Below, piece by piece: positions 1 through 37,748 of a stretch of DNA of 64,000 nucleotides. Made by a program: the position numbers and the translations under genes. The DNA comes from a virus: IMG/VR virus record IMGVR_UViG_3300022700_000177, positions 1 through 64,000 of that record, one strand, 5' to 3'. The notes under the pieces were generated by a model, which was given only the letters and a program-made list of their open reading frames with translations, was not told where the DNA came from and did not search any database. Within the stretch, counting starts at the first letter, position 1. Every line of letters starts with the position of its first letter.

Positions 1-184
1 TTTTGATTGAGCTGATTGTGGCTCTTGGTTTCTACTGACTCCCCAATCATGCTCGGCATCTTTGTAACTAACTCAAAAAATACAAGTTTTTCCCCGATTT
101 ACTATCGTATTTTTGAGTTAGAGAAGATTCGGGGTGTGATTGATAACTGTGAGCAGAGAGAAGACAAACCACGCTCAATCAAAA

Positions 185-219
185 CTTCAGTTTTAGGCTG
201 AAGGGATGTTCTTTGACAA
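185..219 (+). promoter_or_regulatory. boxB-like hairpin followed by boxA-like antitermination element
   Basis: CTTCAG-ttttagg-CTGAAG hairpin (185-203), then TGTTCTTTGACAA (207-219), resembling rrn boxA, upstream of the long early operon. Confidence 0.4.
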
Positions 220-505
220 TACAGAAGTTTTGGGGTTTTGGTAAGATTATTGTTGCTTTTCTCAGGCAAGGCAAAACAGTAACACCCTAAGTTTATTAAC
301 AGTTTTCTTTGTGTGCGAACGCTCTGCGGGGATTGTTTTACTTGTAGTTTAATAATTCTCGTTAGTACAAATTTTCGCCAAAGTGAAACGCCAACCACTA
401 CTTATCGTGTGAGTCTGCCTCCATTAGCTTGGCAAAGGCAGGCCGGGTGTCTGATGTTTCATTTTAACTGCAAGTAGCTGTTTTTCAAATCGGGGACTAC
501 TTGTT

Positions 506-561
506 TTAATTGACTCTGAGAAGGGGAGAACTGAGTTCTTCCCTTCAATTGTGTCAGTTAA
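506..561 (+). repeat. Intergenic 3x4 internal-loop hairpin, copy 1
   Basis: ttaattgac-tc-[tga]-gaaggggagaac-tga-gttcttcccttc-[aatt]-gt-gtcagttaa. Confidence 0.8.
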
Positions 562-587
562 CCATTAAAATTGGAGGTGGTTTATGT
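559..587 (+). repeat. Conserved early-gene leader/RBS, 29 bp identical to 1571-1599
   Basis: TAACCATTAAAATTGGAGGTGGTTTATGT occurs at both positions. Confidence 0.9.
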
Positions 588-910
588 TTAAAGTACAATT
601 TGATTGTCCAGTATGTGGGACCAACAAAATTGAACAGGTAGCTGAAGGGTCTTTTGTTTCTCAACTTGTAGCAATTGTGGACAATGGGGAAAACGTACAA
701 AAAGACTTGGAAATAACAGAAGAGTTTGTTCAAAGATTCCAGTGCTTTGAATGTGGTTTTGTATTAAAAGACGATAATGGGAATTACATCTCTGACCCCG
801 AAGAACTTTACGAACACTTGCTTGAAAACGGCTGGGTATCTAATGAAGAGTATGAGGACACTATTACGGCTGAACGTGCTTCTTATATGAAAGAACAGTT
901 AAACACTTAA
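584..910 (+). CDS. Zn-ribbon hypothetical protein
   Basis: CPVC and CFEC pairs; strong RBS. Confidence 0.8.
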   Translation: MFKVQFDCPVCGTNKIEQVAEGSFVSQLVAIVDNGENVQKDLEITEEFVQRFQCFECGFVLKDDNGNYISDPEELYEHLLENGWVSNEEYEDTITAERASYMKEQLNT

Positions 911-923
911 ATTGGAGGTTGTT

Positions 924-1157
924 ATGAGTAACATTATCAGCAATCGTATGGGGCACAGGCCAATGGGGTATGTAACTTCTCAGTTTTTTGGTATGAATAC
1001 TGATGGGAGTTACATGAGAGAGCTAAGGAAAATAGATAGAGAAGCTCGGGAAGCATCTTCTCGGGGTTCTGCTGTGATTCATGTACGAAAAGGTGAGTCT
1101 CGTTTAGGTGCTTATTTGAGTAGTATTCCAGAGAAAAGCAAGCGTAAGCGTGGTTAA
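924..1157 (+). CDS. hypothetical protein
   Basis: start moved to the ATG after AAATTGGAGGT (909-919). Confidence 0.75.
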   Translation: MSNIISNRMGHRPMGYVTSQFFGMNTDGSYMRELRKIDREAREASSRGSAVIHVRKGESRLGAYLSSIPEKSKRKRG

Positions 1158-1210
1158 ATAATTCTGAGAAGGGGAGAGCATTGTTCTCCCCTTTGATTGG
1201 ATCGTTTAAC
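1153..1210 (+). repeat. 3x4 internal-loop hairpin, copy 2
   Basis: gttaaataattc-[tga]-gaaggggagagc...gttctccccttt-[gatt]-ggatcgtttaac. Confidence 0.8.
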
Positions 1211-1230
1211 TTATAAGATTGGAGGTGGCT

Positions 1231-1536
1231 ATGAAACACAAAAACGGTATTTTCTTTCGTAAGGGCATGATTGTAATGATTACAAACATTTATAACAAAG
1301 ACCTTAAAAGAATACGAATAAGACGTACGGTTGGAATAATTCATCATATTGATGAAGATGGGTATGTCTCATTGTACCCACTGCATGGTACTGCGAGAAA
1401 GGTATTGCGAGAAAGGTATTGCGAGAAAGATGGTCTTGAATACCACACAAATGGAGATAAGACATACAGCGATACTTACGGACATGCTTGCCATCATGTT
1501 TCATTAAAAACCACCCGTATTCTTGGAGAGGTGTAA
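1231..1536 (+). CDS. hypothetical protein containing a 3x14-bp tandem repeat
   Basis: ATG after ATTGGAGGT (1218-1226). Confidence 0.75.
   Translation: MKHKNGIFFRKGMIVMITNIYNKDLKRIRIRRTVGIIHHIDEDGYVSLYPLHGTARKVLRERYCEKDGLEYHTNGDKTYSDTYGHACHHVSLKTTRILGEV
1387..1428 (+). repeat. 14-bp tandem repeat x3
   Basis: GGTACTGCGAGAAA GGTATTGCGAGAAA GGTATTGCGAGAAA. Confidence 0.9.
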
Positions 1537-1595
1537 TTTCAAGTAGGGAGTACTATAATACTCGACCTAATAACCATTAAAATTGGAGGTGGTTT

Positions 1596-1892
1596 ATGTC
1601 TGTTGAAGTGTTGAATATTGAGAGTGGGGTTATCTTGGATTATGGGGAAGTCTTCGGTGAAGAAGACTATACCGATTGTCTCCTCGATCCGGGGGAAGTT
1701 CAAATAACTTTAACTGATGGCAGGGTGTTCACTCTTTATAAGGGTGAACGGCTTGAAATCAACGGACAGACTTGGGAAGTTGTTAATTGCACAATCCCAT
1801 TGTATTGTCCTCAGTGTGGCTTGGCGCATACTTGGGACTCTCACAAATGCGTATATCACGATGCGGATTTAGTGACTGAACCTTTAACATAA
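1596..1892 (+). CDS. hypothetical protein, C-terminal CxxC
   Basis: ORF with conserved leader. Confidence 0.8.
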   Translation: MSVEVLNIESGVILDYGEVFGEEDYTDCLLDPGEVQITLTDGRVFTLYKGERLEINGQTWEVVNCTIPLYCPQCGLAHTWDSHKCVYHDADLVTEPLT

Positions 1893-1948
1893 AGGGAATC
1901 TTACAAGCTGTCTGCTCTCATAGTAGGCAGCTTGGATAGATTTCTTTT
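1891..1948 (+). repeat. 3x4 internal-loop hairpin, copy 3
   Basis: aaagggaatc-[tta]-caagctgtctgct...agtaggcagcttg-[gata]-gatttctttt. Confidence 0.8.
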
Positions 1949-1976
1949 TAAACCTATAAAATTTTAGAGGTGGTTT

Positions 1977-2282
1977 ATGAGTTTTAATAATACTTTATAC
2001 TTAAAACCTTTAGAAGAGCTACAAAGGAGACTTGGCGGTAAGTGCGGTGAAAATAAAAGATGCTGCCCTTATTTCATAACAAAAGGTCTTTGGATTTGTA
2101 AAGATTGTGTTGAGATGTTTAAGGATATTGCGGATCTTCAAAAAGAGGTTGGAGAATCTGAAAAGTCCCATGTAAACCCATGTCCTTGCTGTTCCAAACA
2201 ATTAAGTAGTGAAGTAGTCATAGCAAGACTGGAAGAACTTATTGAGGAATTAAGGGAAGAACTTATTGAAGGGGAAAAATAA
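1977..2282 (+). CDS. Cys-rich hypothetical protein, probable paralog of 4210-4518
   Basis: shared C..CP..CxxC..F..CPC..E..I.R pattern. Confidence 0.75.
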   Translation: MSFNNTLYLKPLEELQRRLGGKCGENKRCCPYFITKGLWICKDCVEMFKDIADLQKEVGESEKSHVNPCPCCSKQLSSEVVIARLEELIEELREELIEGEK

Positions 2283-2301
2283 AACTAAATTGGAGGTATT
2301 T

Positions 2302-2568
2302 ATGAACTGTCCAGTATGTAACTGTGCTTCATTTTGGAATGAAGAAACTGGGTTTGCTTTTGTTTGCCGAGATTGTGGTACAGAAATTCGGTGCAGTGCT
2401 TTAAATTTTCACAAAGTGAACCTTGATTCCGCTATTGATAAACAAGAGTGGATCAAGGCTATCAAAGCAATCCGAAACATTTCCTGTTCACAGGGAGGTG
2501 AAACTATTGGCTTGAAGGAAGCCAAAACCATAGTAGATGTTTTTAGGAAATACATTCCTGTAGATTAG
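2302..2568 (+). CDS. Zn ribbon plus ribosomal L7/L12 C-terminal-like domain
   Basis: CPVC/CRDC, then IKAIKAIRNI...GLKEAKTIVD typical of the bL12 CTD; start after AAATTGGAGGTA. Confidence 0.65.
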   Translation: MNCPVCNCASFWNEETGFAFVCRDCGTEIRCSALNFHKVNLDSAIDKQEWIKAIKAIRNISCSQGGETIGLKEAKTIVDVFRKYIPVD

Positions 2569-2619
2569 GAGGTTTTTAGAAGGCTTGAGTAAAATTCAAG
2601 CCTTCAATAAAACCTTTTA
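2566..2619 (+). repeat. 3x4 internal-loop hairpin, copy 4
   Basis: taggaggttt-[tta]-gaaggcttgag...ttcaagccttc-[aata]-aaacctttta. Confidence 0.8.
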
Positions 2620-2675
2620 GTTTTAACAAACCTACTGTCACTCCGGGGACAGCACAAACAAATTGGAGGTGGATT

Positions 2676-2819
2676 ATGCCAAAGAGCAAGCATAGGAAAA
2701 AAGAAAAACCTAATAGCAGAGCGAGAAAAAGCCAAAAGGTTCAAACGCCCAAACCCAACAACCAAACATATCTGGAAAAAATGTTTTTTGATGCGTTTTT
2801 TAGATTAAAGAATTTTTAA
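2676..2819 (+). CDS. small basic protein (47 aa, not in ORF track)
   Basis: CAAATTGGAGGT leader, then MPKSKHRKKEK...RLKNF*. Confidence 0.65.
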   Translation: MPKSKHRKKEKPNSRARKSQKVQTPKPNNQTYLEKMFFDAFFRLKNF

Positions 2820-2850
2820 GATTTTAAACTCACTCCTGAGGAGGTGGCTT

Positions 2851-3312
2851 ATGTGTATTGCTGTACCTGTAGAAAAAATTGATTTTTTCGATGAAACAGA
2901 AGGATTTGGTTATAAGGTAATGACTGAAAAAAATGGTTTTATTCAGCCTTTATTTCCTCGAGGACAAAAAGGATTTGGTAGGGTTCCTAAATTTTTTAAG
3001 TATGCAAAAAATAGCTTTGTCCCTTTCAAAGACAAAGCTGCTATAAGAGAGTCCCTTATTTATTTCGGACCAAAACATATGTTTGACAATTATGTTCAGG
3101 GTTTCAACTTCTTTCTATATTTTGATGAGGCAGCGAAATACCTGCGAGAAACCGGGTATTATTATTTAAATGCAGAAGTAGGTATTTATAAAATTTATTA
3201 TCAAAAAGGTATTGGCAGCTACACAATACCTTCAGGCTTAGTTGGGAATTATATGAAAACTTCTATTTGTTCTGAATTTATAATTATGAGAAGAGAAAGG
3301 GGGTTTATTTAA
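2851..3312 (+). CDS. hypothetical protein, probable tandem paralog of next gene
   Basis: GYKV...GFNFF..EA here versus GYKL...GFSFF..EA in the next gene. Confidence 0.75.
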   Translation: MCIAVPVEKIDFFDETEGFGYKVMTEKNGFIQPLFPRGQKGFGRVPKFFKYAKNSFVPFKDKAAIRESLIYFGPKHMFDNYVQGFNFFLYFDEAAKYLRETGYYYLNAEVGIYKIYYQKGIGSYTIPSGLVGNYMKTSICSEFIIMRRERGFI

Positions 3313-3314
3313 GT

Positions 3315-3818
3315 ATGTGTAACCGATTTGACGAAGCTATCCAGTGTTTCCATGATGTAAAATTGGATGTTGGGTACAAACTATTTGAATTGTGGGCTAA
3401 AGAATCTACGGGAGATATTTTATACCTCCCTCCATGGTCTTCTTATCCTTATGAATTCAATAAGGATGTTTGTACTTTCATTAAAGAAAAAGAAAGCGAA
3501 GGTGATGGCTTTTCTTTCTTTGTTGAATTAAAAGAAGCTGAACATTTCTTTAAAAACCTTAATTCATGCAATCCCCCTATTAATACCGAACAGGCAGTGC
3601 TGCTTTTTGATAAAACTACTCGTGTAACAAACGTGTTTAAAGGGATTGCTTTAGCCGAAATAGCTTTATTTAACCCCTCATTGGTAATTAGTCACAAATT
3701 GGATGGAAAAAGAAGGGTACTTGGACTTACACCTAAATTTATAATTAAGAAGATTATAGAAACTACAACTACAAACCATGAAATTACGAAAAAAAGGGAG
3801 GATCATTATGGAATGTAA
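3315..3818 (+). CDS. hypothetical protein
   Basis: ORF packed in the operon; resembles upstream gene. Confidence 0.75.
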   Translation: MCNRFDEAIQCFHDVKLDVGYKLFELWAKESTGDILYLPPWSSYPYEFNKDVCTFIKEKESEGDGFSFFVELKEAEHFFKNLNSCNPPINTEQAVLLFDKTTRVTNVFKGIALAEIALFNPSLVISHKLDGKRRVLGLTPKFIIKKIIETTTTNHEITKKREDHYGM

Positions 3819-4137
3819 AAATTGTGGTACAGAAATGTGTTTGGTGGGTTTTGAATCAGAAAAACCTAAAAGGCCAAAGTATATATGTACTGAGTGTGGG
3901 AAACAAGAGGTAAATACTGCCAGAGCTTGGGTAGCTTGGCTTGTACCTTCTATCATGATTAGACTTGACAGTACAAGTCCTGTCAATGAGACCATCCTAA
4001 ATCTTGCTGTTGAATTTTTAGGTCCAATTCATATTCAAGGAGGTAACTACAAAGAAATGATGAGGTTGGAAAGTGTGGTGAAATTCCCAAGAAAATTCTC
4101 TTCTCTTTCATTAGATAGAAAGTATTTTAGGTCTTGA
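3808..4137 (+). CDS. Zn-ribbon hypothetical protein
   Basis: CKNC/CTEC; GGAGG before ATG 3808. Confidence 0.75.
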   Translation: MECKNCGTEMCLVGFESEKPKRPKYICTECGKQEVNTARAWVAWLVPSIMIRLDSTSPVNETILNLAVEFLGPIHIQGGNYKEMMRLESVVKFPRKFSSLSLDRKYFRS

Positions 4138-4187
4138 ATCATCGGAGCCCTGAGTTATTCTCGGGGTTCCCATTGATTTAGGAACCT
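4129..4187 (+). repeat. 3x4 internal-loop hairpin, copy 5
   Basis: tcttgaatc-[atc]-ggagccctgag...ctcggggttcc-[catt]-gatttagga. Confidence 0.8.
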
Positions 4188-4209
4188 TAAACCAAATTGG
4201 AGGTGGATT

Positions 4210-4518
4210 ATGGAAGAGACAAATTTTTATGTGGGGTTTTATGCAAAGTATAACGAAAGGTTTCATGCTGAAAGGGTTCTTCACATTCTTTCAAATTTTG
4301 AAATGCCTTGTTCTATGTCTGTTTGTCCAGGAGAACCTTATTTTCGTATACCTTGGGTGGGAGGTATTGATTATTTGGAGCATAAAATAATCTTTGCTTG
4401 CCCCATTTGCCGTAAATTTGCCGGTATTGACAGAGGTGAGTGCCCTTGTCCAACCCTTGGAAAGGAAGAAAATATCAAAAGGTCTTGGTTAAAACTTAAA
4501 GAAATGGGATTAGTTTAA
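4210..4518 (+). CDS. Cys-rich hypothetical protein
   Basis: CAAATTGGAGGT leader; CPIC and CPCP. Confidence 0.8.
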   Translation: MEETNFYVGFYAKYNERFHAERVLHILSNFEMPCSMSVCPGEPYFRIPWVGGIDYLEHKIIFACPICRKFAGIDRGECPCPTLGKEENIKRSWLKLKEMGLV

Positions 4519-4527
4519 GGGGGTTTT

Positions 4528-4764
4528 ATGTACAAAATGTATGATGTTGACATTGAGGACTTAACTCAAGAAGAAATTCAAGAGTTATTCCTTAAGCATG
4601 ATGAGTCAAACCTGTGGCCTATCAAAGGAAGATTCAATGTTACTGAAAAAGCGATACAAAACCTTAAACAGTTTGAGGAACTTGGTGGTGTTTTGAATGA
4701 CGGTCTTGAGTACGCATTGGCTTTAGACAATGAAATATCTAAAATTGTAAACTCGGAGGTGTAG
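4528..4764 (+). CDS. hypothetical protein
   Basis: ORF with RBS. Confidence 0.7.
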   Translation: MYKMYDVDIEDLTQEEIQELFLKHDESNLWPIKGRFNVTEKAIQNLKQFEELGGVLNDGLEYALALDNEISKIVNSEV

Positions 4765-4765
4765 T

Positions 4766-4969
4766 ATGAAGTACATTAACCATGCAATGGATGAAAAGTT
4801 GCACAAAAAGTTGGTTAAGCTGGCTGAGGAAAGACGCTTGCCCTTACGTCACTTAATGAATAAACTGGTGGACTTGGGGCTTGATCTTGTCAAAGCCCAA
4901 AAGAAAGGGAGTAAAATTGTTGTTGTTGATAAGGAAGGCAATGAAACCCAACTCAAAATCTATCTTTAA
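4766..4969 (+). CDS. putative ribbon-helix-helix DNA-binding protein
   Basis: short N-terminal strand, then DEKLHKKLVKLAEERRLPLRHLMNKLV helices. Confidence 0.5.
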   Translation: MKYINHAMDEKLHKKLVKLAEERRLPLRHLMNKLVDLGLDLVKAQKKGSKIVVVDKEGNETQLKIYL

Positions 4970-4978
4970 GGAGGTATC

Positions 4979-5155
4979 ATGGGAGAACAAATCAATCACA
5001 AACCAAGTGAAAAAAGGCAGATCAGGAAAGCTCAAAAAAAACGTGGAATGAAATATCTTCAAGAAAAAGGTGTTGATGTCATTGAATGGTGTAGACAACA
5101 TGACCCGTTGTATCAAGTCAAGGGTATTGAACGGCACCTAAAAACAAGGAGGTAA
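4979..5155 (+). CDS. hypothetical protein (58 aa, not in ORF track)
   Basis: AAGGAGGT RBS; fills the gap exactly. Confidence 0.65.
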   Translation: MGEQINHKPSEKRQIRKAQKKRGMKYLQEKGVDVIEWCRQHDPLYQVKGIERHLKTRR

Positions 5156-5158
5156 CTC

Positions 5159-5518
5159 ATGGCACTGTATTTCAATCCCAATCCAGAGGCACAGAGGGCA
5201 ATAATGAAGACAATTTTCTTTGTCTACAACAACCACTCTTTATCATCCTTCACTGCTTTTATGGGAAAACTGTCATACCTGGATGGCTATGGTGATGATG
5301 GGGTTGATGTTATTTTGACTTCAGCTAACAGAAGGCCGGTCCAAGACAAAGAGGATTTCATTGAGTTCGGGATTCAGTGGACTCAACAAAAAGATATAAA
5401 TGAACCACATTATGAACATCCAATTTATTGTAGAGAAAACATCTTTATGGTTGGAGGTCTTGTTTATCATGGCAATGATCAATGGGGGTGTTCATACCTA
5501 AAAGTTGCTGAAAAGTAG
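5159..5518 (+). CDS. hypothetical protein
   Basis: AAGGAGGT RBS. Confidence 0.75.
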   Translation: MALYFNPNPEAQRAIMKTIFFVYNNHSLSSFTAFMGKLSYLDGYGDDGVDVILTSANRRPVQDKEDFIEFGIQWTQQKDINEPHYEHPIYCRENIFMVGGLVYHGNDQWGCSYLKVAEK

Positions 5519-5560
5519 ATGCCCTTGGCTTGTGTCAGGGGCATTTATCGTTTCAGGAAC
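5504..5560 (+). repeat. internal-loop hairpin, copy 6 (divergent loop)
   Basis: gttgctgaaa-[agt]-agatgcccttggc...gtcaggggcattt-[atcg]-tttcaggaac. Confidence 0.65.
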
Positions 5561-5583
5561 ATCAACAAATTGGGGGTGGATTT

Positions 5584-5751
5584 ATGTATGTGATTAAAAA
5601 AGGTTCATTGTATGTGGCAAAGGAAGGATTGCCTTGTTCCTACACAAAAGTTGTAAAAAAAGCAAGGAAATTCAAAACAAAAGAGGAGGCTGAACGAAAC
5701 AGATGTCCTGAAAATGAACGGGTTGTTGACTTATTGACTGACATTCTTTAA
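5584..5751 (+). CDS. hypothetical protein
   Basis: start after CAAATTGGGGGT. Confidence 0.7.
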   Translation: MYVIKKGSLYVAKEGLPCSYTKVVKKARKFKTKEEAERNRCPENERVVDLLTDIL

Positions 5752-5762
5752 GGAGTGACTGC

Positions 5763-6461
5763 ATGACCTACATTCAAATCACTACAAGGTGCAACATGCG
5801 TTGTCCACACTGCTGCTACTCATGTACAGAGGATGGACAAGACATGGACATCGAAACATTCAAAAGGGCAGTTAAGGAATCGGATGAGATTGAGGATAGT
5901 GGTATAACTATTGGGGGTGGAGAACCCACACTTCATCCCCAATTTTGGGAGTTCATGGGTATTGCTTTGAGTGCATGGTGTCTTGACGATTTGCCTTTAT
6001 TCATTGCCACTAATGGTTCAAACAAAGACATCTCCATGAGGCTTGCACACATGGCAAAACGGGGACTGATTCATGCAGCTCTGTCCGTTGATGATTTTCA
6101 CTTAGGCATAGATGAGTCAGTGCTAAAGGCTTTCGGCTATTACAGGTCCAGGAAACAGCCTTCCTGGCCTTATGTGGGGCAATACAACACTACGCCAACA
6201 GACTTACGAGAAATCAGAAATGTCTCCTCAAATGTTGCAAACATTGGGAGGGCTGTTGAGAATGGTTTAGGAGTTTCTGATCGTTGTGTATGTGAAACCC
6301 CATTCATCACACCAACAGGCGAAATTTATATGTGCGGTTGTCAAGAGTTTCTTTTAGGTGATATTTTTAATGGGTATGCTTTCCCTGAAGGTTACCATGA
6401 CTTGGATGAGAGGTGTTCAAAGGAATATTTTCAAATGTTAGAGGAAGAGGAGGCGATATGA
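5763..6461 (+). CDS. radical SAM protein with Cys-rich (twitch/SPASM-like) C-terminus
   Basis: CNMRCPHC motif, GGGEPTLHP, ATNG, C-terminal Cys cluster. Confidence 0.85.
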   Translation: MTYIQITTRCNMRCPHCCYSCTEDGQDMDIETFKRAVKESDEIEDSGITIGGGEPTLHPQFWEFMGIALSAWCLDDLPLFIATNGSNKDISMRLAHMAKRGLIHAALSVDDFHLGIDESVLKAFGYYRSRKQPSWPYVGQYNTTPTDLREIRNVSSNVANIGRAVENGLGVSDRCVCETPFITPTGEIYMCGCQEFLLGDIFNGYAFPEGYHDLDERCSKEYFQMLEEEEAI

Positions 6462-6835
6462 CTTACTATGAGTTCAAAAATGAAGAGGGAGAAGGTTATG
6501 GCAGTTTCAAAACCTTTTATTTAGATAAAACTGATAGAATGTGGGAAGATGAAGCAACTGAATGGTTTAAATCTTTAGTGGACTATACTGGAGAACACAG
6601 GGACGATATTAGCCTTCTACTCAAATTGAAAGAAAGGGCAGAATACGCAGGTTTTGACTTGGTTCTTGTCGCTGCAAAAAACGAACCTATTTACATGGAA
6701 ATCCAAAAAGCAAAGAAAGCCCTTTCAGGTTGGTATTGGGTGGCAGAATTTCCTGGCTGCCTGCCTGATGGTGACTTTTTTGGCCCTTTTGAAACTGAAG
6801 AGAAAGCTGTTAACAATGCAAGGAGTTTAGAATGA
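6458..6835 (+). CDS. hypothetical protein
   Basis: GGAGG RBS; GWYW..FPGCLPDG..GPFETE motif. Confidence 0.75.
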   Translation: MTYYEFKNEEGEGYGSFKTFYLDKTDRMWEDEATEWFKSLVDYTGEHRDDISLLLKLKERAEYAGFDLVLVAAKNEPIYMEIQKAKKALSGWYWVAEFPGCLPDGDFFGPFETEEKAVNNARSLE

Positions 6836-7143
6836 AAAAAGGAAAGTTCAAAATTAGTGTTGTGAATGATTTGACTGAAGAACAAAGTTGGCGGGAAGTT
6901 TCTGGGTTGATATCAAAATATTTAGGTATACACAAAGGTGAAGGAGGATATCAAGTAACTCATCTACCTACAGGTTTACTCGCTATTAAGTATCCGCTAA
7001 AATATCTAAGGACTGCAAAGGAAATAGTTTCTGAATATGAAAAAAAGTTTCCTTTTGCATTAGCAGAAAAAAATGTTGATAAAATAAAACCCGTTATTCC
7101 AAAAATGCTCGAAATATTTAACTATTATTTCAACAGGGAGTGA
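6832..7143 (+). CDS. hypothetical protein
   Basis: ATGA translational coupling. Confidence 0.75.
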   Translation: MKKGKFKISVVNDLTEEQSWREVSGLISKYLGIHKGEGGYQVTHLPTGLLAIKYPLKYLRTAKEIVSEYEKKFPFALAEKNVDKIKPVIPKMLEIFNYYFNRE

Positions 7144-7145
7144 CT

Positions 7146-7301
7146 ATGGAAAAGCATAAAAGTATCAGACAAGCTGTGGATTTCTTGGAGATTCAGGGGT
7201 ATAAGCCTATAGCAGGAAAGCCCTGTCATTTCTTCAAATGTAAAAAGAGGGCTGTTATTGTCATCTCCCCAAGAGCAAAGATATTTGTGGCTTACCATTA
7301 G
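7146..7301 (+). CDS. hypothetical protein (51 aa, not in ORF track)
   Basis: GGAG RBS; ends at the next hairpin. Confidence 0.55.
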   Translation: MEKHKSIRQAVDFLEIQGYKPIAGKPCHFFKCKKRAVIVISPRAKIFVAYH

Positions 7302-7364
7302 GTTGGCTGATCCTGAAAAGGGGCAAGCTACTGTTTGTCCCTTTGATTGTTTCAGTGGAACCTA
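7299..7364 (+). repeat. 3x4 internal-loop hairpin, copy 7
   Basis: taggttggctgatcc-[tga]-aaaggggcaagc...gtttgtcccttt-[gatt]-gtttcagtggaaccta. Confidence 0.8.
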
Positions 7365-7383
7365 TAACGAGTGGAGGTAATTT

Positions 7384-7842
7384 ATGAAGCTGAAACTTTC
7401 TCAAAACGGTTTTAACTATCTGATGTTCGGGCATGAAGAGGATGAAAGAGCAACCTTTAAACTCTGGGTGAACAAATACCTTACCAATGGGGAACGTGAA
7501 ATTCACTTCCCCTTAAAAGCTAAGGTGATTGTCACAGGCAAAGGTAACAAAGTTCTAAAGCCAGCAGAGGATGTTTGGACTTTGAACCTGTTTGCAGAAT
7601 GTAACTATAAAGGGGAGACTGATATTTGTGTGCTTGGCAAATCGGTCCCCTTTCTCAGATCGCTTAGTCCATACAAAGAACTGAATTGTGTACACAATCC
7701 AGCTCTTGGTATATCTCGTGGTTTACTTGTCTCTGTCTCTACCCCTGAGCTTTTCTATGAAGTGACAAGAGACAATAAAGTGTTTCAATTACACTGGACA
7801 GAAGGAGGTAAAAGCGTATTGACAAACACCTACAAAGTCTAA
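7384..7842 (+). CDS. hypothetical protein
   Basis: TGGAGGTAA RBS. Confidence 0.75.
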   Translation: MKLKLSQNGFNYLMFGHEEDERATFKLWVNKYLTNGEREIHFPLKAKVIVTGKGNKVLKPAEDVWTLNLFAECNYKGETDICVLGKSVPFLRSLSPYKELNCVHNPALGISRGLLVSVSTPELFYEVTRDNKVFQLHWTEGGKSVLTNTYKV

Positions 7843-7881
7843 GGCCAAAAACTATAAACCTTAACCAAATTGGAGGTTTTT

Positions 7882-8454
7882 ATGACTGAACAATTTCAAT
7901 CAACCTGTGGCTGCCCTTTCGATCCCAATCCAAAGTCTTCCTGTTTCACAATCTGCAAGAAAGATGATCCTGAATCTTTTAAGCAGTGTGAAGGGGCTTT
8001 TGCTTCTGCATCGGAGACAAAGAAGGCTAAACGGAAGAAAGCTGCCAAACCTAAGAAGCAGAAAAGGTATGACATCATCGGTGATGGAGTTGGCACTTCA
8101 GCATCCATGATCAACTCACTCCTCATTTGCGGGGCTACTATGCAAGAGTTTCAAGAGGAAATTGGTTGTGATGCTTCTCGTATTCGGGGTCATTTTGGTG
8201 GGCTGCGTAACGGCAACAAGAATCGTGGTCCAAAAGAAATCTTCCACTCAAAAGAGAACGGCAGGTTTTACTTTGATGATCCCAACTTGGAATACTTTGG
8301 GGAATGTGGCGAAGAGGGCGAGTTGCCCAAACCTACTCCAAAGAAAGGGAAGAAAACTTCAGCCAAGCGTAAAACGGATACGAAAGTGAAAGCCAAACCT
8401 AAAGCTAAAGCCAAACCTAAGGCGAAGAAGGAAACTAAAGCGGAAGCTAAGTAA
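7882..8454 (+). CDS. HTH-like DNA-binding protein with H1-like Lys/Ala/Pro tail; paralog of 25789-26514
   Basis: GATMQEFQEEIGCDASRIRGH core; KAKPKAKAKPKAKK tail. Confidence 0.65.
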   Translation: MTEQFQSTCGCPFDPNPKSSCFTICKKDDPESFKQCEGAFASASETKKAKRKKAAKPKKQKRYDIIGDGVGTSASMINSLLICGATMQEFQEEIGCDASRIRGHFGGLRNGNKNRGPKEIFHSKENGRFYFDDPNLEYFGECGEEGELPKPTPKKGKKTSAKRKTDTKVKAKPKAKAKPKAKKETKAEAK

Positions 8455-8460
8455 TCACCA

Positions 8461-8494
8461 CAGCCCCTGGCTCAGGCCGGGGGCTTATTTTTTT
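8461..8494 (+). terminator. rho-independent terminator
   Basis: AGCCCCTGG-ctcagg-CCGGGGGCT followed by a T tract. Confidence 0.85.
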
Positions 8495-8620
8495 CCTTCT
8501 CCAGCAAGGTAAAACCTGTATTTTCTACTGGCTTTTCTATGCAATTTTACTATTTTAGAGTGTTTGACTTTCTTTAATGCGTGGATCATCTTTCCGCGGA
8601 TCAAAACTAAGGAGGTTTTT

Positions 8621-8914
8621 ATGGGAGGAAGAGTTTGTGTGGGTTGTGGTAATGTGACAAATGACTTCCAAACCTGCGTTAAATGTAACGGTCAATATAT
8701 TTGTCCTAAATGTTCCTTTTGTAATTATTGTGGTCATGAAGATAAACACCTGTATTACATAAAAAGACAACTGCAAAGAAAAAGGGAATCAAAGGAAAAC
8801 AGAATTGAAGAATTAAAAAAAGGATACTATGTCAATTTGTTTGAATTAGCTACTTTAGAAAAACAAATAGAATTGCTTGAAAACATCTATTTTGAATTCC
8901 TTTACTATAAATAG
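8621..8914 (+). CDS. multi-CxxC Zn-finger protein
   Basis: four CxxC pairs; AAGGAGG RBS. Confidence 0.75.
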   Translation: MGGRVCVGCGNVTNDFQTCVKCNGQYICPKCSFCNYCGHEDKHLYYIKRQLQRKRESKENRIEELKKGYYVNLFELATLEKQIELLENIYFEFLYYK

Positions 8915-8922
8915 GGGTTTTT

Positions 8923-9129
8923 ATGATGACCAGAATTGAAAATGAGTTAAAAACAATTCAAGACAGTAGGGTTTTAAAGGAGGAACTCCATTGTTTCATG
9001 GATGAAATTCAAAATCATTACCTTCACATCAACGATGACCATATCTTTCTAATCTTTTTGGAATTTGTATTAGATAGGTGTAAAAAAGCTAAAAAGGAGG
9101 AGCTTAATGAACAAAGAGCAGGTAGTTAA
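8923..9129 (+). CDS. hypothetical protein
   Basis: ORF in operon. Confidence 0.65.
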   Translation: MMTRIENELKTIQDSRVLKEELHCFMDEIQNHYLHINDDHIFLIFLEFVLDRCKKAKKEELNEQRAGS

Positions 9130-9748
9130 AAAAATCCACAAGCTGTTAGCGTTGGCAAGCAACAATCCAGAGTCACACGAAGCTAAACTTGCTGGGGAAA
9201 AAGCTGCGGAGTTAATGGCTAAATACCAGATTGAAAGTATCAAGGCTGAGGGAGAGGATTCCAAAGTTTCTGAAGTTAGCACCTCAAGGTACAAAGCTAT
9301 GAATAGCTGGGAGGGGGTATTTCTTGTAAAAATCTGTGACATTTTTGAATGTCGGTGTCTTATCTCAGGGAACAGCTTTAGGATAATTGGAATGAAAGCG
9401 GATGCTGATCTTGCTTTATGGTATTTCGTTTTTATCCGCAGAACGATTATCCGACAATCAGAAGTGTACTCTAAGAAAAAGAAAGAACAGGATGACTTCT
9501 GTGTAGGAATGTCAATTCGTGTTACTGAGAGGTTGAATGAGATTTACAAAAAGAAGGAAGAACAGCAAGTAAAAGAGATGACTAAGGATCTTGTTGTTTT
9601 AAAGAAGGGCGAAGTTGATAATTATATGAAAAACAATTATAAATTGAAGAAAAATCATAGTAAAAGAAGAAGGACAGATGCTAAGGATTATTATGCTGGA
9701 TACAAAAAAGGTGATGACATTTCATTGAACAAACCAGTTGAAAAATAA
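9107..9748 (+). CDS. DUF2786-family protein
   Basis: KKIHKLLALAS..HEAKLA..KAAELMAKY N-terminus; YYAGYKKG near C-terminus. Confidence 0.75.
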   Translation: MNKEQVVKKIHKLLALASNNPESHEAKLAGEKAAELMAKYQIESIKAEGEDSKVSEVSTSRYKAMNSWEGVFLVKICDIFECRCLISGNSFRIIGMKADADLALWYFVFIRRTIIRQSEVYSKKKKEQDDFCVGMSIRVTERLNEIYKKKEEQQVKEMTKDLVVLKKGEVDNYMKNNYKLKKNHSKRRRTDAKDYYAGYKKGDDISLNKPVEK

Positions 9749-9807
9749 GGATGCTTTCACAGGGCCAGTGACTTCAAGTGTCATTGGCCCCATTGGAGGT
9801 AACCTTA
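9746..9807 (+). repeat. 3x4 internal-loop hairpin, copy 8
   Basis: taaggatgctttc-[aca]-gggccagtgac...gtcattggccc-[catt]-ggaggtaacctta. Confidence 0.8.
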
Positions 9808-9825
9808 ACCAAATTGGAGGTATTT

Positions 9826-10047
9826 ATGCCAAAAGCAGAAGTGTTTCATGGGCCAACGCTTATAACAACCCTTACATCAAAAACAGTAAAGGGGGTGTTT
9901 AACCAATGTCAAGGTTATTTTGGTCATTGTTTAGGTGCAACAAAAAACACTGAAGGAAGGAGAATAGGTTGGAAGTTCGCAAGATGCGGAACAAAAATGG
10001 AATGTGTAACTGAAATTTACAACGTTCGTTTATATGAGGAGGATTAG
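9826..10047 (+). CDS. hypothetical protein
   Basis: CAAATTGGAGGTA leader. Confidence 0.75.
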   Translation: MPKAEVFHGPTLITTLTSKTVKGVFNQCQGYFGHCLGATKNTEGRRIGWKFARCGTKMECVTEIYNVRLYEED

Positions 10048-10048
10048 T

Positions 10049-10417
10049 ATGCCAACTTATAAAAGGTCTTTGCAACTTCAAACCAGAGCAGTGAATGAGG
10101 TTAGAATGATCTATTCAATGGCGGTTACTTGCAAGGTAACACATTCAGAATTAACCAAACAAATTATGGAGGTTTACAATCACACCTTAAAAGAAGCACC
10201 GCAATGGGCGAGAGAGTATGTTCGTGGTTATGTTGCTTGTCTCTTGGATAGAATCCAAGAGGAGCATATGGAATTCTGCTATATTATCAAAGGGCATCGT
10301 TACAGTACCAGAAAAGACTCCCCTATCAATTACGAAAAACACCACATTCTCCCAAGTCAGCTTTCAGGCCAGCCAAACGGCTTTTATTGGAAAGACACAG
10401 ACAAACTTTTCTACTAA
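10049..10417 (+). CDS. hypothetical protein
   Basis: GAGGAGG RBS. Confidence 0.75.
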   Translation: MPTYKRSLQLQTRAVNEVRMIYSMAVTCKVTHSELTKQIMEVYNHTLKEAPQWAREYVRGYVACLLDRIQEEHMEFCYIIKGHRYSTRKDSPINYEKHHILPSQLSGQPNGFYWKDTDKLFY

Positions 10418-10440
10418 CCTTTAGCTGATTGGAGGTATTT

Positions 10441-11295
10441 ATGAGTTTCGTAGAAGCAATGGAAGAAAAAGCAAGGATCATTGATGGAGTCAGAGAAAGA
10501 TTCCCAGAAGTAGAATGGCCTACCCCTGTCAAGGAGCCTATTTGGACAGGGCGGTTTGACAAGAAGCCTATTGAAGGTTGGTATGCGTTAAGGGATCAAA
10601 ACAATCAAAATCTATTCCAGTTTGTGTCCGATGATTATGCTCTGGTGTTTAATGAAGAAATTGTGGACAAAGCTGTTACTGCTGTGGATGAACTTGGCGA
10701 TACTTTTGGAGAACCCAAATTCGCTTTCAAGTTCTTCAAAGATGGGGCGAGGTTTAAGCTAAACATCACATTCCCGGACGCTCAAAAGAATATAGCACTG
10801 AAAGATCCTGTTGCCCCAACATTGTCCCTTAAAAACTGCTATGACAAATCAAGGAAGTTCATCTTTGAACGTGGAGCAATGGAACTTGTGTGTACTAATG
10901 GGTTAGTCGTACCAAGATTTAAAGACATGATTCAAAAGAAACATATCGGAGACTTTGATGTTCCTGACATTAAACAGGAATTGGTTAATTTCATTGAGGG
11001 CTTTGATCACACAACAGCAATTTGGCAGAAGTGGACTCAAACAAAAATTGACAAGTTTCAGGTTGCTGAGATTTGGGAAGCGATGCCCTTCTCAGAGAAG
11101 GAACGAGAGAAAATTGAAGCGTTACCTCTCATTGGGGATGGCAAGACTTTGGGTAGCTCAACTGATGGTTCAGTACTGCTTTGGGATTTGAATCGTGCTA
11201 CCACTCAATACCTAACTCACGAAATGAAATCTTCAGTAAGGGCAGACGAAGCAGGCCCTATCATTGCCAACATTATTTCCAAGTATTCTAATTAG
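10441..11295 (+). CDS. DUF932/DUF945-like protein
   Basis: VSDDYALVFN, LKNCYD, LVCTNGLV, KH motifs. Confidence 0.75.
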   Translation: MSFVEAMEEKARIIDGVRERFPEVEWPTPVKEPIWTGRFDKKPIEGWYALRDQNNQNLFQFVSDDYALVFNEEIVDKAVTAVDELGDTFGEPKFAFKFFKDGARFKLNITFPDAQKNIALKDPVAPTLSLKNCYDKSRKFIFERGAMELVCTNGLVVPRFKDMIQKKHIGDFDVPDIKQELVNFIEGFDHTTAIWQKWTQTKIDKFQVAEIWEAMPFSEKEREKIEALPLIGDGKTLGSSTDGSVLLWDLNRATTQYLTHEMKSSVRADEAGPIIANIISKYSN

Positions 11296-11311
11296 TTATC
11301 AACTTAACAAC

Positions 11312-11335
11312 TGGGGGCTGAGAAGTCAGCCCCCA
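11312..11335 (+). other. GC-rich hairpin (possible terminator or processing signal)
   Basis: TGGGGGCTGA-gaag-TCAGCCCCCA; no + strand T tract. Confidence 0.5.
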
Positions 11336-11354
11336 TACAAAAAGGAGGTTCGAA

Positions 11355-11810
11355 TTGAGAAATCCATTTAAGAAGAAAAAACAAACACCAACAGAAAGGA
11401 AACAAAGTGAACCAGAGTTTGCAAAGCAGATGGCAGGGAAACTTCAGTTTGAAAAGTGGAAGATACTAAGAATACAAAGACCTTACGATCAACTTGAAGT
11501 CCTCATTGATGATTTTGATGCTCGATTTATTGATTGGGAATTTATCTATGGCAATGGATGGACTGCAAGAGTAACGGACTTTATCTACACCTTTGAGCAG
11601 TTGGAGAGAAAGAAGATACCGACAGCAGGAAATATTTGGACGTGTGAATGTAAAAGTAAATACCAGTTTGTTCATTCTGATTACATCAAAATATGCACTC
11701 GGTGTTTTGCAATTTTGGATGAAAAAGAGTACACTAAGAGACTCCCCTACATTGGAGATATACTCAAGGGATGGCGAAGATTTGCTGAACTTCCTAAATA
11801 TGTAAAATAA
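11355..11810 (+). CDS. hypothetical protein
   Basis: TTG start after AAGGAGG. Confidence 0.7.
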   Translation: MRNPFKKKKQTPTERKQSEPEFAKQMAGKLQFEKWKILRIQRPYDQLEVLIDDFDARFIDWEFIYGNGWTARVTDFIYTFEQLERKKIPTAGNIWTCECKSKYQFVHSDYIKICTRCFAILDEKEYTKRLPYIGDILKGWRRFAELPKYVK

Positions 11811-11861
11811 GGATACTTTAGGGGCAGAGAGTCATTCCCTGCCCCAATAAGTGGTCTTATT
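11806..11861 (+). repeat. 3x4 internal-loop hairpin, copy 9
   Basis: aataaggatact-[tta]-ggggcag...ctgcccc-[aata]-agtggtcttatt. Confidence 0.8.
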
Positions 11862-11886
11862 GTTTTAACCTAAAAAGGAGGTTTTT

Positions 11887-12204
11887 ATGAAGTACAATTA
11901 TCAGTTTGATTGTAGAGATCCTCTTATTCCTACAGAAGAAATGATTAAAGCTGTGGATGAAGCTACTGAAATTACATGGGAAACTTTTAGAAGAAATATA
12001 AACCTTGATGACCTGAAGGCTTTAATGCCCGGTCTTTATTCCTGGACAGGCAGGGGTTTACACATCAAAAATGACCCATGTGTTTCCTTTTGGAAAACAA
12101 AAATGAGGGGTTTTGTTTGTTATTTTATTTCATGGAGTTCTATAGAATTCTTTTTCACAACAAGGAGGATTTATGGCAAGGGTAAACGTATCAGTAAGGT
12201 TTAA
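11887..12204 (+). CDS. hypothetical protein
   Basis: AAGGAGG RBS. Confidence 0.75.
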   Translation: MKYNYQFDCRDPLIPTEEMIKAVDEATEITWETFRRNINLDDLKALMPGLYSWTGRGLHIKNDPCVSFWKTKMRGFVCYFISWSSIEFFFTTRRIYGKGKRISKV

Positions 12205-13770: not shown

Positions 13771-14103
13771 ATGTATTGCAGGTATTGTGAAATTTATGCT
13801 CAGAGTAATAAGCGAAAAAAGGAAGAAAATATCCAATATCGACACTGTCCCATAAGAAAAACATTTGTTCATAAAATGGAAGTTGCTTGTGATTCCTTCA
13901 AGCGAAATAAGATTTTCTGGTGTGAAAATGACAGTAAATGGCTAACTTTTGAATCCTGTGTGAGCAGACAGAAAAGAAAGGATGAATGTTCTTCCAGATG
14001 CAGACAAAAAAGGGTTATTAACGACATAATGAAAAAGGAATTTTTTAGAGAAAAAAGGAGAAAGAGACTATCTAAAGGTACCTCTTTGAAAAGGAGAAAA
14101 TGA
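13771..14103 (+). CDS. Cys-rich basic protein
   Basis: eight Cys; ends in LKRRK. Confidence 0.7.
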   Translation: MYCRYCEIYAQSNKRKKEENIQYRHCPIRKTFVHKMEVACDSFKRNKIFWCENDSKWLTFESCVSRQKRKDECSSRCRQKRVINDIMKKEFFREKRRKRLSKGTSLKRRK

Positions 14104-16743: not shown

Positions 16744-17645
16744 TGCAAGTAGATACCTTAGCACTACTTAGGGATCTAAATATTCCCTATAAAGAAACAG
16801 GTAAAAATGTGAGTAGTGGATGGGTTGGTGTGAATTGCCCATTTTGCACTGACCCATCATACCACATGGGAATCAACGTTGAAAACGCAACATTTTCTTG
16901 TTGGAGGTGTAGAGAACGGGGTTTTATTGTCAGATTTGTAGAAGAAATTTTGAATATCGACAACAAGGCCGCTTATGGCTATTGCTTGCAGTTCTCAGAT
17001 CGCCAGGAAGGCTTCTCCTTGAACCCACAATCACCCACAGAGTCTAAGCCTAACATAGATGCCATAACACTACCCGGAGAATCTCCTGGACCTAATTCCC
17101 AGAGTTTTAGATATTTGGAATCGAGAGGGCTCAATGCTGGGTTCGTTTCTGAATATTTTGAATTGCAGGAGACTGACTATAGTGACCCAGAGTTCAAATA
17201 TCGAATAATAATTCCAGTATATATCAAAAGAAAATTAGTTACTTTTTTAGGTAGAGATTATACTGACAAAGCAAACCTCAGGTACAAAAACTTATCAAAG
17301 GAAAAGTCAATCATTCCTGTGAAAAAAACAATACTGAACTATGACAAGATACAAAAGTCCTGCTTTATTACAGAGGGTCCTTTTGATGCGTTTGCATTAG
17401 GTGAAGATGCTACTTGCTTATTTGGATCGGAATATACAAAGGAACAAATTGAATTATTGTATAGCAAAGGTTTAGAAAGAGTGGTTGTTATTTATGATCC
17501 AGAAGCATTTCAAATAGGAGAACAATTAGCAAATGAGCTTGCAGGATTTGTACCAGATGTTAAAGAGGTTCAACTTGACCCAGGACAAGACCCAGGTAGT
17601 TTGCCAAGAAAAGAAGTATTCCAGATCAAGAGGTTACTTAGTTGA
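16740..17645 (+). CDS. DNA primase (Zn finger plus TOPRIM)
   Basis: CPFC..H..CWRC; YLESRG; ITEGPFDA; DPG. Confidence 0.9.
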   Translation: MMQVDTLALLRDLNIPYKETGKNVSSGWVGVNCPFCTDPSYHMGINVENATFSCWRCRERGFIVRFVEEILNIDNKAAYGYCLQFSDRQEGFSLNPQSPTESKPNIDAITLPGESPGPNSQSFRYLESRGLNAGFVSEYFELQETDYSDPEFKYRIIIPVYIKRKLVTFLGRDYTDKANLRYKNLSKEKSIIPVKKTILNYDKIQKSCFITEGPFDAFALGEDATCLFGSEYTKEQIELLYSKGLERVVVIYDPEAFQIGEQLANELAGFVPDVKEVQLDPGQDPGSLPRKEVFQIKRLLS

Positions 17646-17670
17646 CAAAACTAAATTTATTGTGTATCAT
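17642..17670 (+). promoter_or_regulatory. sigma70-type promoter firing into non-coding region
   Basis: TTGACA-17 bp-TATCAT. Confidence 0.75.
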
Positions 17671-17676
17671 AGATTC

Positions 17677-17792
17677 TTCCCTGCTGGAGGAGCTTTGGGT
17701 TTTACCTCCAATTTGACCAGACCTTCTCCAGTCTCTTCCTCCTTCTCCTTGTTGGGGCAGCTTTTGATCGGCTGCCCCAACCCACCTTTATT
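17677..17792 (+). ncRNA. candidate trans-acting sRNA with anti-RBS seed loop
   Basis: directly behind promoter; hairpin 17684-17731 with loop TTACCTCCAATTT; C/U-rich linker; 11-bp GC stem 17751-17781; no credible ORF. Confidence 0.6.
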
Positions 17793-36638: not shown

Positions 36639-37748
36639 ATGGCCTTAAAAAACAGAAAGAAGGCAAAGAAGGATCTGGAGAAGAGAGTTAAGGAAAGCCA
36701 TGAACGGAAAGACATGGGCGGTACTGGACAGGGTATTTTTTCATCTGAAGCCCCATTTCAGAAATGGAAATGCTCAGAAGATGACCATGAATTGGACTTT
36801 ATTCCATGGGAAATTGAAGAGGAACCTAATGTTCCTAAATACAACGGTTTGAAAGAAGGCGAAGTCGCCCATTGCATTGACGTTTATGTTCATCAAAGTG
36901 TTGGGCCAAACAATGACAGGTATATCTGCCCTCAAAGAAACTATGGCTTACCTTGCCCAATTTGTGAGGAAAGAGACGAACTTCTGGATGAGGGATACGA
37001 TTATCAACACCCAAAAGTCAAGGCTACTGGTGCTTCAAGACGTTGTATCTATAATGTTTGGGTACATGATTCTTTGAAAGAACAAAAAGTTGGCCCGCAA
37101 GTGTGGGAAGTTGCCCATTGGTTTATCGAAAAGCATATTTCAAGTCTTGCTCGTAATGCAAAACGTGGGACTTACGTTCCTTTTGCTGATCCTGACGAAG
37201 GAAAAACTTTCTCTTTCACGAAGTCTGGTAAACAGAGAAATACTGAATATACAGGATTGAAATTCGTTGACAGGGATGAGCCAATTCCAGATGAGATTGT
37301 TGATAGTGCTTACGCTATTGAAAAGTATTTGTATCTGCCTACTTATGAAGAAATGAAAGAAAGTTTTGAGGCAGGTAAGGTTCAACAGGAAAAGAAAGAA
37401 GGTACTGAGCCTGAGCCCGATAAGGAAGAAAAGCCTGAACCAAAAGAAGAACCAAAACAGGAGGAAAAGGAAGAGGAAGAGAATGAAATTACTAAAGAGG
37501 ATGTAGAAGCCCTTAAAACAAAAGCTAAGGCCAAAAAGTTTGTTAAGGAGCACAAAGACGAAATTGACCTCGATGCCGATGATATTAAAGAAATGTCATT
37601 AGAAGACATTAAGGAATATATCCTTAGCGAACTTGGCCTTGAGGAAGATGAAGAGGAAAGGAGAGACGAGAAGAAAGAGGAAGAGAAGGAGGAAGACGGG
37701 GATGACCCCGAGGATTTCTTCAGTGACGATGATGATGAAGCGTTCTAA
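36639..37748 (+). CDS. single-stranded DNA-binding protein (gp32-like)
   Basis: H..CP..CPICE Zn site; long acidic tail ending DDDDEAF. Confidence 0.75.
   Translation: MALKNRKKAKKDLEKRVKESHERKDMGGTGQGIFSSEAPFQKWKCSEDDHELDFIPWEIEEEPNVPKYNGLKEGEVAHCIDVYVHQSVGPNNDRYICPQRNYGLPCPICEERDELLDEGYDYQHPKVKATGASRRCIYNVWVHDSLKEQKVGPQVWEVAHWFIEKHISSLARNAKRGTYVPFADPDEGKTFSFTKSGKQRNTEYTGLKFVDRDEPIPDEIVDSAYAIEKYLYLPTYEEMKESFEAGKVQQEKKEGTEPEPDKEEKPEPKEEPKQEEKEEEENEITKEDVEALKTKAKAKKFVKEHKDEIDLDADDIKEMSLEDIKEYILSELGLEEDEEERRDEKKEEEKEEDGDDPEDFFSDDDDEAF

Follow-up and report, generated by a model that had tools for sequence, protein, structure and literature searches.

What is the role of a hairpin that returns nine times, in nearly the same shape, between the small genes at one end of a phage genome? 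The question is raised by a stretch of 64,000 nucleotides (the window), bases 1-64000 of the 83,928-base IMG/VR virus record IMGVR_UViG_3300022700_000177, which is rated about 77% complete. The nine hairpins, called here h1 to h9, lie on the + strand within an 11.4-kb stretch of presumed early genes. We show below that they are one family and a class apart from the intrinsic terminators of the same genome, and we consider it moderately probable, by analogy with sites described in other phages, that they are intercistronic signals of RNA processing and stability, that is, sites for a host RNase III-type enzyme and stabilisers of 3' ends.

All nine hairpins were found within a few bases of the positions that an initial annotation of this DNA had given them. 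They are the strongest hairpins of window positions 1-12000, with minimum free energies of -24 to -35 kcal/mol and z scores from -4.3 to -7.3 against dinucleotide shuffles, and all of them present the same fold: a lower stem, an asymmetric internal loop and an upper stem, with 21-27 bp of helix in total. The annotation had described the internal loop as 3x4 (three nucleotides on the 5' side and four on the 3' side) throughout. In the minimum free energy (MFE) folds this holds for h1, h2 and h7, but h3, h4, h5, h8 and h9 have a 2x3 loop and h6 a 1x2 loop; the asymmetry itself is general, the 3' side being one base longer in 9/9. Likewise, most of the upper stems have the 11-13 bp ascribed to them, within a range found to be 11-15 bp, and they are uninterrupted except in h9 (7+2 bp). 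Upper stem plus apical loop amount to 25-34 nt, and the upper stems by themselves reach -14 to -23 kcal/mol. The 3' loop reads NATW in eight copies, h6 being the exception, which is the same count as annotated, and an A-U stands directly after the upper stem in all nine. A loose structural descriptor gave 8 matches within the stretch that holds the nine; elsewhere its matches were weaker, irregular and located inside genes, 9 of them in the remaining 72 kb of the + strand and 6 along the entire - strand. The whole window had no Rfam match at the gathering score. Below that threshold, the only matches in the region, at 11796-11870 and 2559-2629, are with two families of animal microRNA precursors (E 0.13 and 0.53); they are not significant and reflect only the precursor-like shape of the hairpins.

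It was possible to establish the relationship among the copies through covariance models. Four of the hairpins, h1, h2, h4 and h7, are similar enough in sequence to make up a subfamily (mean column identity 74%), and therefore the term "sequence-divergent" used in the initial annotation applies to h3, h5, h6, h8 and h9 and not to these four. Because MAFFT could not align the divergent copies (it aligned h1, h2, h4, h7 and h9 only), alignments were made through three models: R1, trained on h1, h2, h4 and h7; R2, trained on h3, h5, h6 and h9 only; and R3, built from all nine hairpins. When R2 was run on both strands of the 64 kb, its top nine matches were the nine hairpins, all on the + strand, and the next match (E 0.085) was the reverse strand of a training copy. 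Model R1, which is dominated by the sequence of its four members and misaligned h8, recovered h3 and h9 in the window (Table 1). Since models trained on one subset recover the others, it is settled that the nine hairpins are one family; neither the window nor the final 20 kb of the record yielded a further copy to the covariance models. In the nine-row alignment, 92% of the cells hold a standard pair against 58% in shuffles, and all of the pairs change on both sides (25/25), counts that are somewhat inflated because this alignment was fitted to the model. In the lower stem, 13/13 pairs change on both sides and 87% are paired. The covariation score is 0.953, compared with 0.279 in shuffles (0 of 500) and with 0.09-0.30 when the partners are slid by 1-3 columns. 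The covariation check thus bears out the earlier proposal that pairing is kept while the stem sequences change.

Table 1. Positions and properties of the nine hairpins, of a reference terminator of the same genome, and of the matches of model R3 in the T7 genome. Loops and stems are from MFE folds; ORF, open reading frame; "untrained" marks hairpins scored by a model that was not trained on them.
Feature	Location	Strand	Context	Internal loop (5' / 3')	Stems	Covariance model match
h1	504..563	+	before first early gene, no upstream ORF	3x4 (TGA / AATT)	upper 12 bp	R2, 27.4 bits, E 2.6e-4, untrained
h2	1152..1211	+	starts at stop codon 1155	3x4 (TGA / GATT)	upper 12 bp	R2, 31 bits, E 2.7e-5, untrained
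h3	1888..1952	+	stop codon 1890	2x3 (TA / GAT)	upper 13 bp	R1, 20.8 bits, E 0.005, untrained
h4	2563..2622	+	stop codon 2566	2x3 (TA / AAT)	upper 12 bp, lower 14-15 bp	R2, 38.8 bits, E 1.9e-7, untrained
h5	4129..4187	+	stop codon 4135 within lower stem	2x3 (TC / CAT)	upper 11 bp	R1, 12.1 bits
h6	5502..5562	+	stop codon 5516 at upper-stem base	1x2 (3x4 if two weak pairs open)	upper 15 bp	R1, 12.3 bits
h7	7300..7363	+	stop codon 7299	3x4 (TGA / GATT)	upper 12 bp	R2, 20.1 bits, E 0.027, untrained
h8	9746..9807	+	stop codon 9746	2x3 (CA / CAT)	upper 11 bp	R2, 23 bits, E 0.0042, untrained
h9	11805..11862	+	stop codon 11808	2x3 (TA / AAT)	upper 7+2 bp, one A.C mismatch	R1, 19.2 bits, E 0.015, untrained
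Canonical intrinsic terminator	8462..8494	+	internal contrast, not a family member		10-bp GC stem, run of seven T	
T7 R18.5	T7 36814-36870		between genes 18 and 18.5			R3, 21.7 bits, E 0.0038
T7 R4.7	T7 13851-13906		before gene 4.7			R3
T7 R1	T7 3098-3152		before gene 1			R3
T7 R3.8	T7 11160-11227		before gene 3.8			R3
T7 R0.5	T7 1428-1479		before gene 0.5			R3

Another aspect to consider is the molecule in which the structure is formed. Across the nine hairpins, 33 of the 212 pairs are G-U. The sense RNA folds at -23 to -34 kcal/mol and the antisense at -14 to -24, the sense strand being better by 6-16 kcal/mol in 8/9 copies. Five copies folded with DNA parameters gave no better than -11 to -14 kcal/mol for the + strand and -7 to -10 kcal/mol for the - strand. 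The G-U pairs, as had been noted, favour a sense-strand RNA structure. Given that the DNA folds are weak, and weaker still for the - strand, a cruciform or a bottom-strand DNA substrate is unlikely.

The placement of the hairpins relative to the genes is equally regular. Where an ORF precedes the hairpin (8/8 copies), the stop codon of that ORF is part of the hairpin's 5' strand or adjoins it, 9-18 nt ahead of the upper stem in seven of them and at the upper-stem base in h6; h1 stands before the first gene, without a preceding ORF. From the end of the hairpin to the next ATG there are 18-28 nt, or 53 nt in the case of h4, where an extra small hairpin (ctgtcactccggggacag, window 2633-2654) is located between h4 and the next leader and accounts for the longer spacing. 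On the 3' side of each hairpin there is a TTAAC(C)-like motif, followed by the common leader AAATTGGAGGTGG. The ORFs flanking the hairpins are co-oriented, and the gene junctions that have no hairpin are either tight or carry the leader alone. This agrees with the annotated tendency of the hairpins to begin at the upstream stop codon and to end near the next ribosome-binding site. A second copy of TTGGAGGT occurs in h8, in the 3' strand of its lower stem (window 9793-9820). It lies 21 nt 5' of the true ribosome-binding site, and as a decoy it is held in pairs within the hairpin.

Hairpins placed directly after stop codons could be transcription terminators, and the genome itself offers the standard for comparison. 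Four canonical terminators were found in it (at 8462, ~27290, ~44920 and ~54800), with 8-9 T in ten bases and runs of 5-7, whereas the ten bases 3' of the upper stems of the nine hairpins contain 2-5 T, in runs of three at most. The terminators used by the host polymerase thus look textbook, the nine hairpins are a class apart from them, and the statement that they lack a terminator-like U tract is sustained.

If they are not terminators, which known signal do they resemble? An ideal RNase III substrate has 22 bp, or two helical turns, and the enzyme shows a weak sequence preference at the cut (PMC3867540). In T7 and SP82 substrates, internal loops confine cutting to the downstream strand, and a protective 3' hairpin is left (PMC3867540, PMC1935012); the distal box of T7 R1.1 is directly next to the apical loop, and cutting of this site yields a 28-nt stem-loop (PMC1540722). 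The helix length, the loop position and the loop asymmetry of the nine hairpins fit these published rules (PMC3867540, PMC1540722, PMC1935012): each hairpin has 21-27 pairs, where a T7-type signal is expected to have about 20-22 bp or more and its internal loop about 11-12 bp from the apical loop, the internal loop is n x (n+1) in 9/9, and the stem-loops of 25-34 nt compare with the 28-nt product of R1.1.

A direct comparison with T7 was carried out with model R3. As the T7 and SPO1 records have no RNase III site features, the T7 sites were placed by gene names and intergenic gaps. On the T7 genome, R3 gave six matches at E<=10, five of which fall in gaps named for RNase III sites (Table 1), an enrichment that this model suggests to be far beyond chance. 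The strong cleavage sites of T7 are R3.8, R4.7, R6.5 and R18.5 (PMC5592923). The alignments between R3 and the T7 matches are full length and show 3 nt on the 5' side of the internal loop and 4 nt on its 3' side, and the loop UUA / AAUA is common to T7 R1 and h4. The likeness is one of shape and not of homology, since the sequence-heavy model R1 found none of these T7 sites. The analogy with T7 drawn in the initial annotation is thus supported in part, through the shape and the published rules. Sites of Bs-RNase III in the early mRNA of the Bacillus phages SP82 and SPO1 have also been described (Panganiban and Whiteley 1983; Mitra and Bechhofer 1994; both as cited in PMC4838370 and PMC1935012). 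When we folded the early intergenic gaps of SPO1, five of them showed a 2x3 loop over a 10-11 bp upper stem; these are our own folds, and it is in geometry that they match the hairpins described here.

Based on these similarities, the following mechanism can be proposed. Each hairpin would present about two helical turns with an asymmetric internal loop 11-15 bp below the apical loop, and this loop would limit RNase III to a single cut on its 3' side, within N-A-U-W, as in the T7 and SP82 sites. The upstream message would then end in a protective hairpin of 25-34 nt, and the downstream message would start about 25-35 nt before its start codon with the common TTAACC...AAATTGGAGGTGG leader. Cutting at h1 would shorten the primary transcript at its 5' leader, as happens at the first T7 early site before gene 0.3. 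The enzyme would be that of the host; no RNase III gene was found in the 84 kb of the record. In addition, the hairpin-plus-leader repeats may act in relatives as joints for the gain, loss and swap of genes. The single polycistronic transcript, RNase III as the enzyme and the position of the cut are all parts of the mechanism that we infer.

Several points weigh against this proposal. The nine copies are paralogues of one genome and not orthologues, and the covariation counts carry the inflation mentioned above, of which the cross-validation is independent. Among the T7 matches, R18.5 is the only one that is significant alone; model R1 gave no T7 site on the + strand, and the SPO1 hairpins were detected neither by R1 nor by R3. 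Furthermore, with the stop codon in the lower stem, the terminating ribosome would melt part of the substrate, and the conserved A-U in the 3' loop could be read instead by a binding protein or by a single-strand endonuclease such as RNase E or Y.

Related contigs provide a different kind of evidence. No RNA run was listed as containing the stretch, which says nothing about its expression. Short contigs 80-95% identical to the region were found in one public DNA run (X1), labelled marine sediment metagenome, and four joints in them are situated at hairpin or leader positions; all come from one study, and some joints have short sides. The joint 524->896 lacks gene 584-910 and has 29 different bases in place of the top of h1. 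The h1 variant, rebuilt in silico, retains the 3x4 architecture under another upper stem of 11 bp, and the A-U after the stem is kept. The deletion of gene 584-910 joins two copies of CAGTTAAMC. At the joint 580->2299 leader is joined to leader; at 4129->4979 a segment of 849 nt (4130-4978) is replaced by 304 nt; and at 7143->7338 the gene 7146-7301 is absent. The clearest breakpoint repeats are in the conserved leader (CAGTTAAMC, AAATTGGAGGT) and not in the stems. We read the gene shuffling as a consequence of the repeated regulatory units and not as their purpose.

Four other explanations have to be weighed against processing by RNase III. The nine hairpins could terminate transcription weakly or conditionally, or make the polymerase pause, so that expression is graded along the operon, possibly with a phage antitermination system overriding them. 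This would agree with their position after stop codons, with a simple consensus scan that flags h5, h7 and part of h2 for T-rich tails, and with the moderately U-rich 3' lower strands of several copies. We regard it as improbable, given the contrast in T tails with the four textbook terminators; moreover, terminators are not characterised by a conserved asymmetric loop or by a covarying lower stem, and without an antiterminator, of which Pfam found none in the early ORFs, nine such elements in 11 kb would shut down the genes behind them. It is quite improbable, too, that the units are DNA-level recombination sites bounding mobile cassettes, similar to integron attC or to the promoter-early stem-loops (PeSLs) of T4-type phages, with the RNA structure being incidental. 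This cassette alternative, already raised in the initial annotation, finds some basis in the contigs, whose differences comprise whole genes and break at the modules, and in the association of PeSLs, which are repeats containing stem-loops, with indels between close T4-type relatives (PMC4122927, PMC2839356); as a side effect of the units, recombination is borne out in part. As their function it meets several objections: on the other strand the 33 G-U pairs become A.C mismatches, and both the - strand and the DNA folds are weak; homologous recombination needs identity, not covarying stems, and the clearest breakpoint repeats lie in the leader; no tyrosine integrase (PF00589) was found in the 84 kb of the record (about 77% of the genome); and, unlike PeSLs, the modules show no promoter. 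Indeed, no strong + strand promoter match was obtained in any module, only two 9-of-12 matches near h3, with a total at the level of shuffles.

The remaining two explanations keep the hairpins as RNA elements. They could be passive and uncut, acting as a block to 3' exonucleases, as insulation between cistrons or in translational coupling from the stop codon to the ribosome-binding site. The base of the hairpin does set the stop codon beside the next leader, at 18-28 nt from the hairpin end to the ATG, and the upper stems are stable alone; we find this quite improbable, as it leaves unexplained the invariant loop asymmetry, the fixed distance to the apical loop, the conserved A-U and the specific likeness to T7 sites that are cut. 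Rather unlikely, in our opinion, is that a different factor reads the N-A-U-W loop beside a stable hairpin, either a single-strand endonuclease of the RNase E, G or Y type, after the ribosome opens the lower stem, or an RNA-binding protein of phage or host such as a translational regulator or an antiterminator. The A-U present in all copies and in the h1 variant of the relative, the stop codon 9-18 nt before the upper stem in 7/8 copies, where termination would free the 3' strand, and the weak sequence preference of RNase III (PMC3867540) speak for such a factor. On the other hand, no RNase, antiterminator or RNA-binding family was found by Pfam among the ~30 early ORFs, the covariation and 87% pairing of the lower stem would be needless if a hairpin with a single-stranded tail sufficed, and the two-turn length together with the T7 matches fits RNase III better.

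A broader view of the same elements can be put forward, although we hold it to be unlikely as a whole. The unit of about 100 nt formed by stop codon, two-tier hairpin, TTAACC and AAATTGGAGGTGG leader might be a portable module without a promoter, in which RNA cleavage would give each early cistron a capped 3' end and an identical exposed leader, so that one phage antisense RNA (candidate at 17642-17792) could shut off the whole set, while the DNA repeats would drive the shuffling of cassettes and the exchange of hairpin tops. The link between the hairpins and this candidate small RNA is speculation.

As regards the genomic setting, the window has a GC content of 36.7%. From ~500 to 54,700, the + strand carries small ORFs without annotated function, followed by genes for a helicase, a DnaB-like ATPase, a UDG-PolA fusion, gp32, RNR and sugar-modifying enzymes; the virion genes of the phage are on the - strand. 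The DNA polymerase shares ~21-25% identity with those of cultured phages (about 25% at best) and 33% with one IMG/VR fragment. A megablast of window positions 1-12000 gave no match in cultured phages, and no close relative came out of IMG/VR when it was scanned with the leader pattern, the DNA polymerase, and the DUF932 protein and its alignment; two of the records, L008 and L009, are distant, and L008 has no such hairpins. In JGI metagenomes, a search with a DUF2786 protein returned nothing related, and the leader pattern gave 15 single chance matches, none of them related by blastn or tblastx. The term "early operon" is inferred from the layout, because neither the cultured phages nor IMG/VR include a close relative of this phage. 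It probably comprises at least two transcription units, since the textbook terminator at 8462-8494 closes the first gene block; this terminator splits the row of genes and is followed by ~125 nt free of ORFs, with the next gene at 8621.

Other features were observed in this part of the genome. Many of the small early ORFs (window 584-4137 and 8621-8914) have paired CxxC motifs and look like zinc ribbons, and their Pfam zinc-finger matches are all below threshold. The ORF 1231-1536 contains a 14-nt unit (GGTATTGCGAGAAA) repeated 3.1 times in tandem at 1387-1429, with a period that is not a multiple of three and a frame that stays open. Between the DUF932 gene and the next gene there is a plain 10-bp GC-rich hairpin (window 11312-11335), which has no lower stem, internal loop or U tract and is of a different kind from the nine.

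If processing at the hairpins is true, the strategy of T7 and SP82, in which the early message is cut at intercistronic hairpins and the products receive 3' caps, works also in a very distant, uncultured phage of marine sediment. The nine-member structural alignment could serve as the starting point of a general model with which such sites are found in metagenomic phages. Furthermore, the cassette differences suggest that the regulatory units double as joints for gene shuffling, which would explain a fast turnover of accessory early genes. The current understanding of RNase III and of phage gene expression would remain unchanged; this is most likely a familiar type of signal in a new phage.

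Compared with known systems, the units resemble PeSLs in being repeated intergenic stem-loop units between small accessory genes, at which close relatives show indels and replacements. They differ from them in that a PeSL joins a terminator-like stem-loop to an early promoter, whereas no promoter was seen in the units studied here, whose conserved partner is a translation leader and whose stem has a conserved internal loop. They differ from integron attC sites in the absence of PF00589 from the 84 kb and in the weak DNA folds, weaker still on the - strand. The hairpins of SP82 and SPO1 are likewise early and intergenic, and in our SPO1 folds an upper stem of 10-11 bp stands on a 2x3 internal loop; the SPO1 hairpins are flanked by a common motif, GGUUGCUAG...CAUGGAGCC, which is absent from the nine. 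With respect to the T7 signals (R0.3, R0.5, R1, R1.1, R1.3, R3.8, R4.7, R6.5, R13 and R18.5), there is no sequence homology past short motifs, the lower stems are longer and far more stable in the phage described here, and five of the nine hairpins are sequence-divergent whereas the T7 sites have a clear consensus; cleavage is proven for the T7 sites and proposed for the hairpins presented here. Nevertheless, the T7 signals are also intercistronic two-tier hairpins that start at a stop codon, with the longer side of the loop at 3' and ~10-13 bp below the apical loop, with purines prevailing in the 5' strand where the upper stem begins (AAGG...CCUU in T7, GAAGG...CCUUC in h1, h2 and h4), with an A-U-rich 3' loop and with one copy before the first gene.

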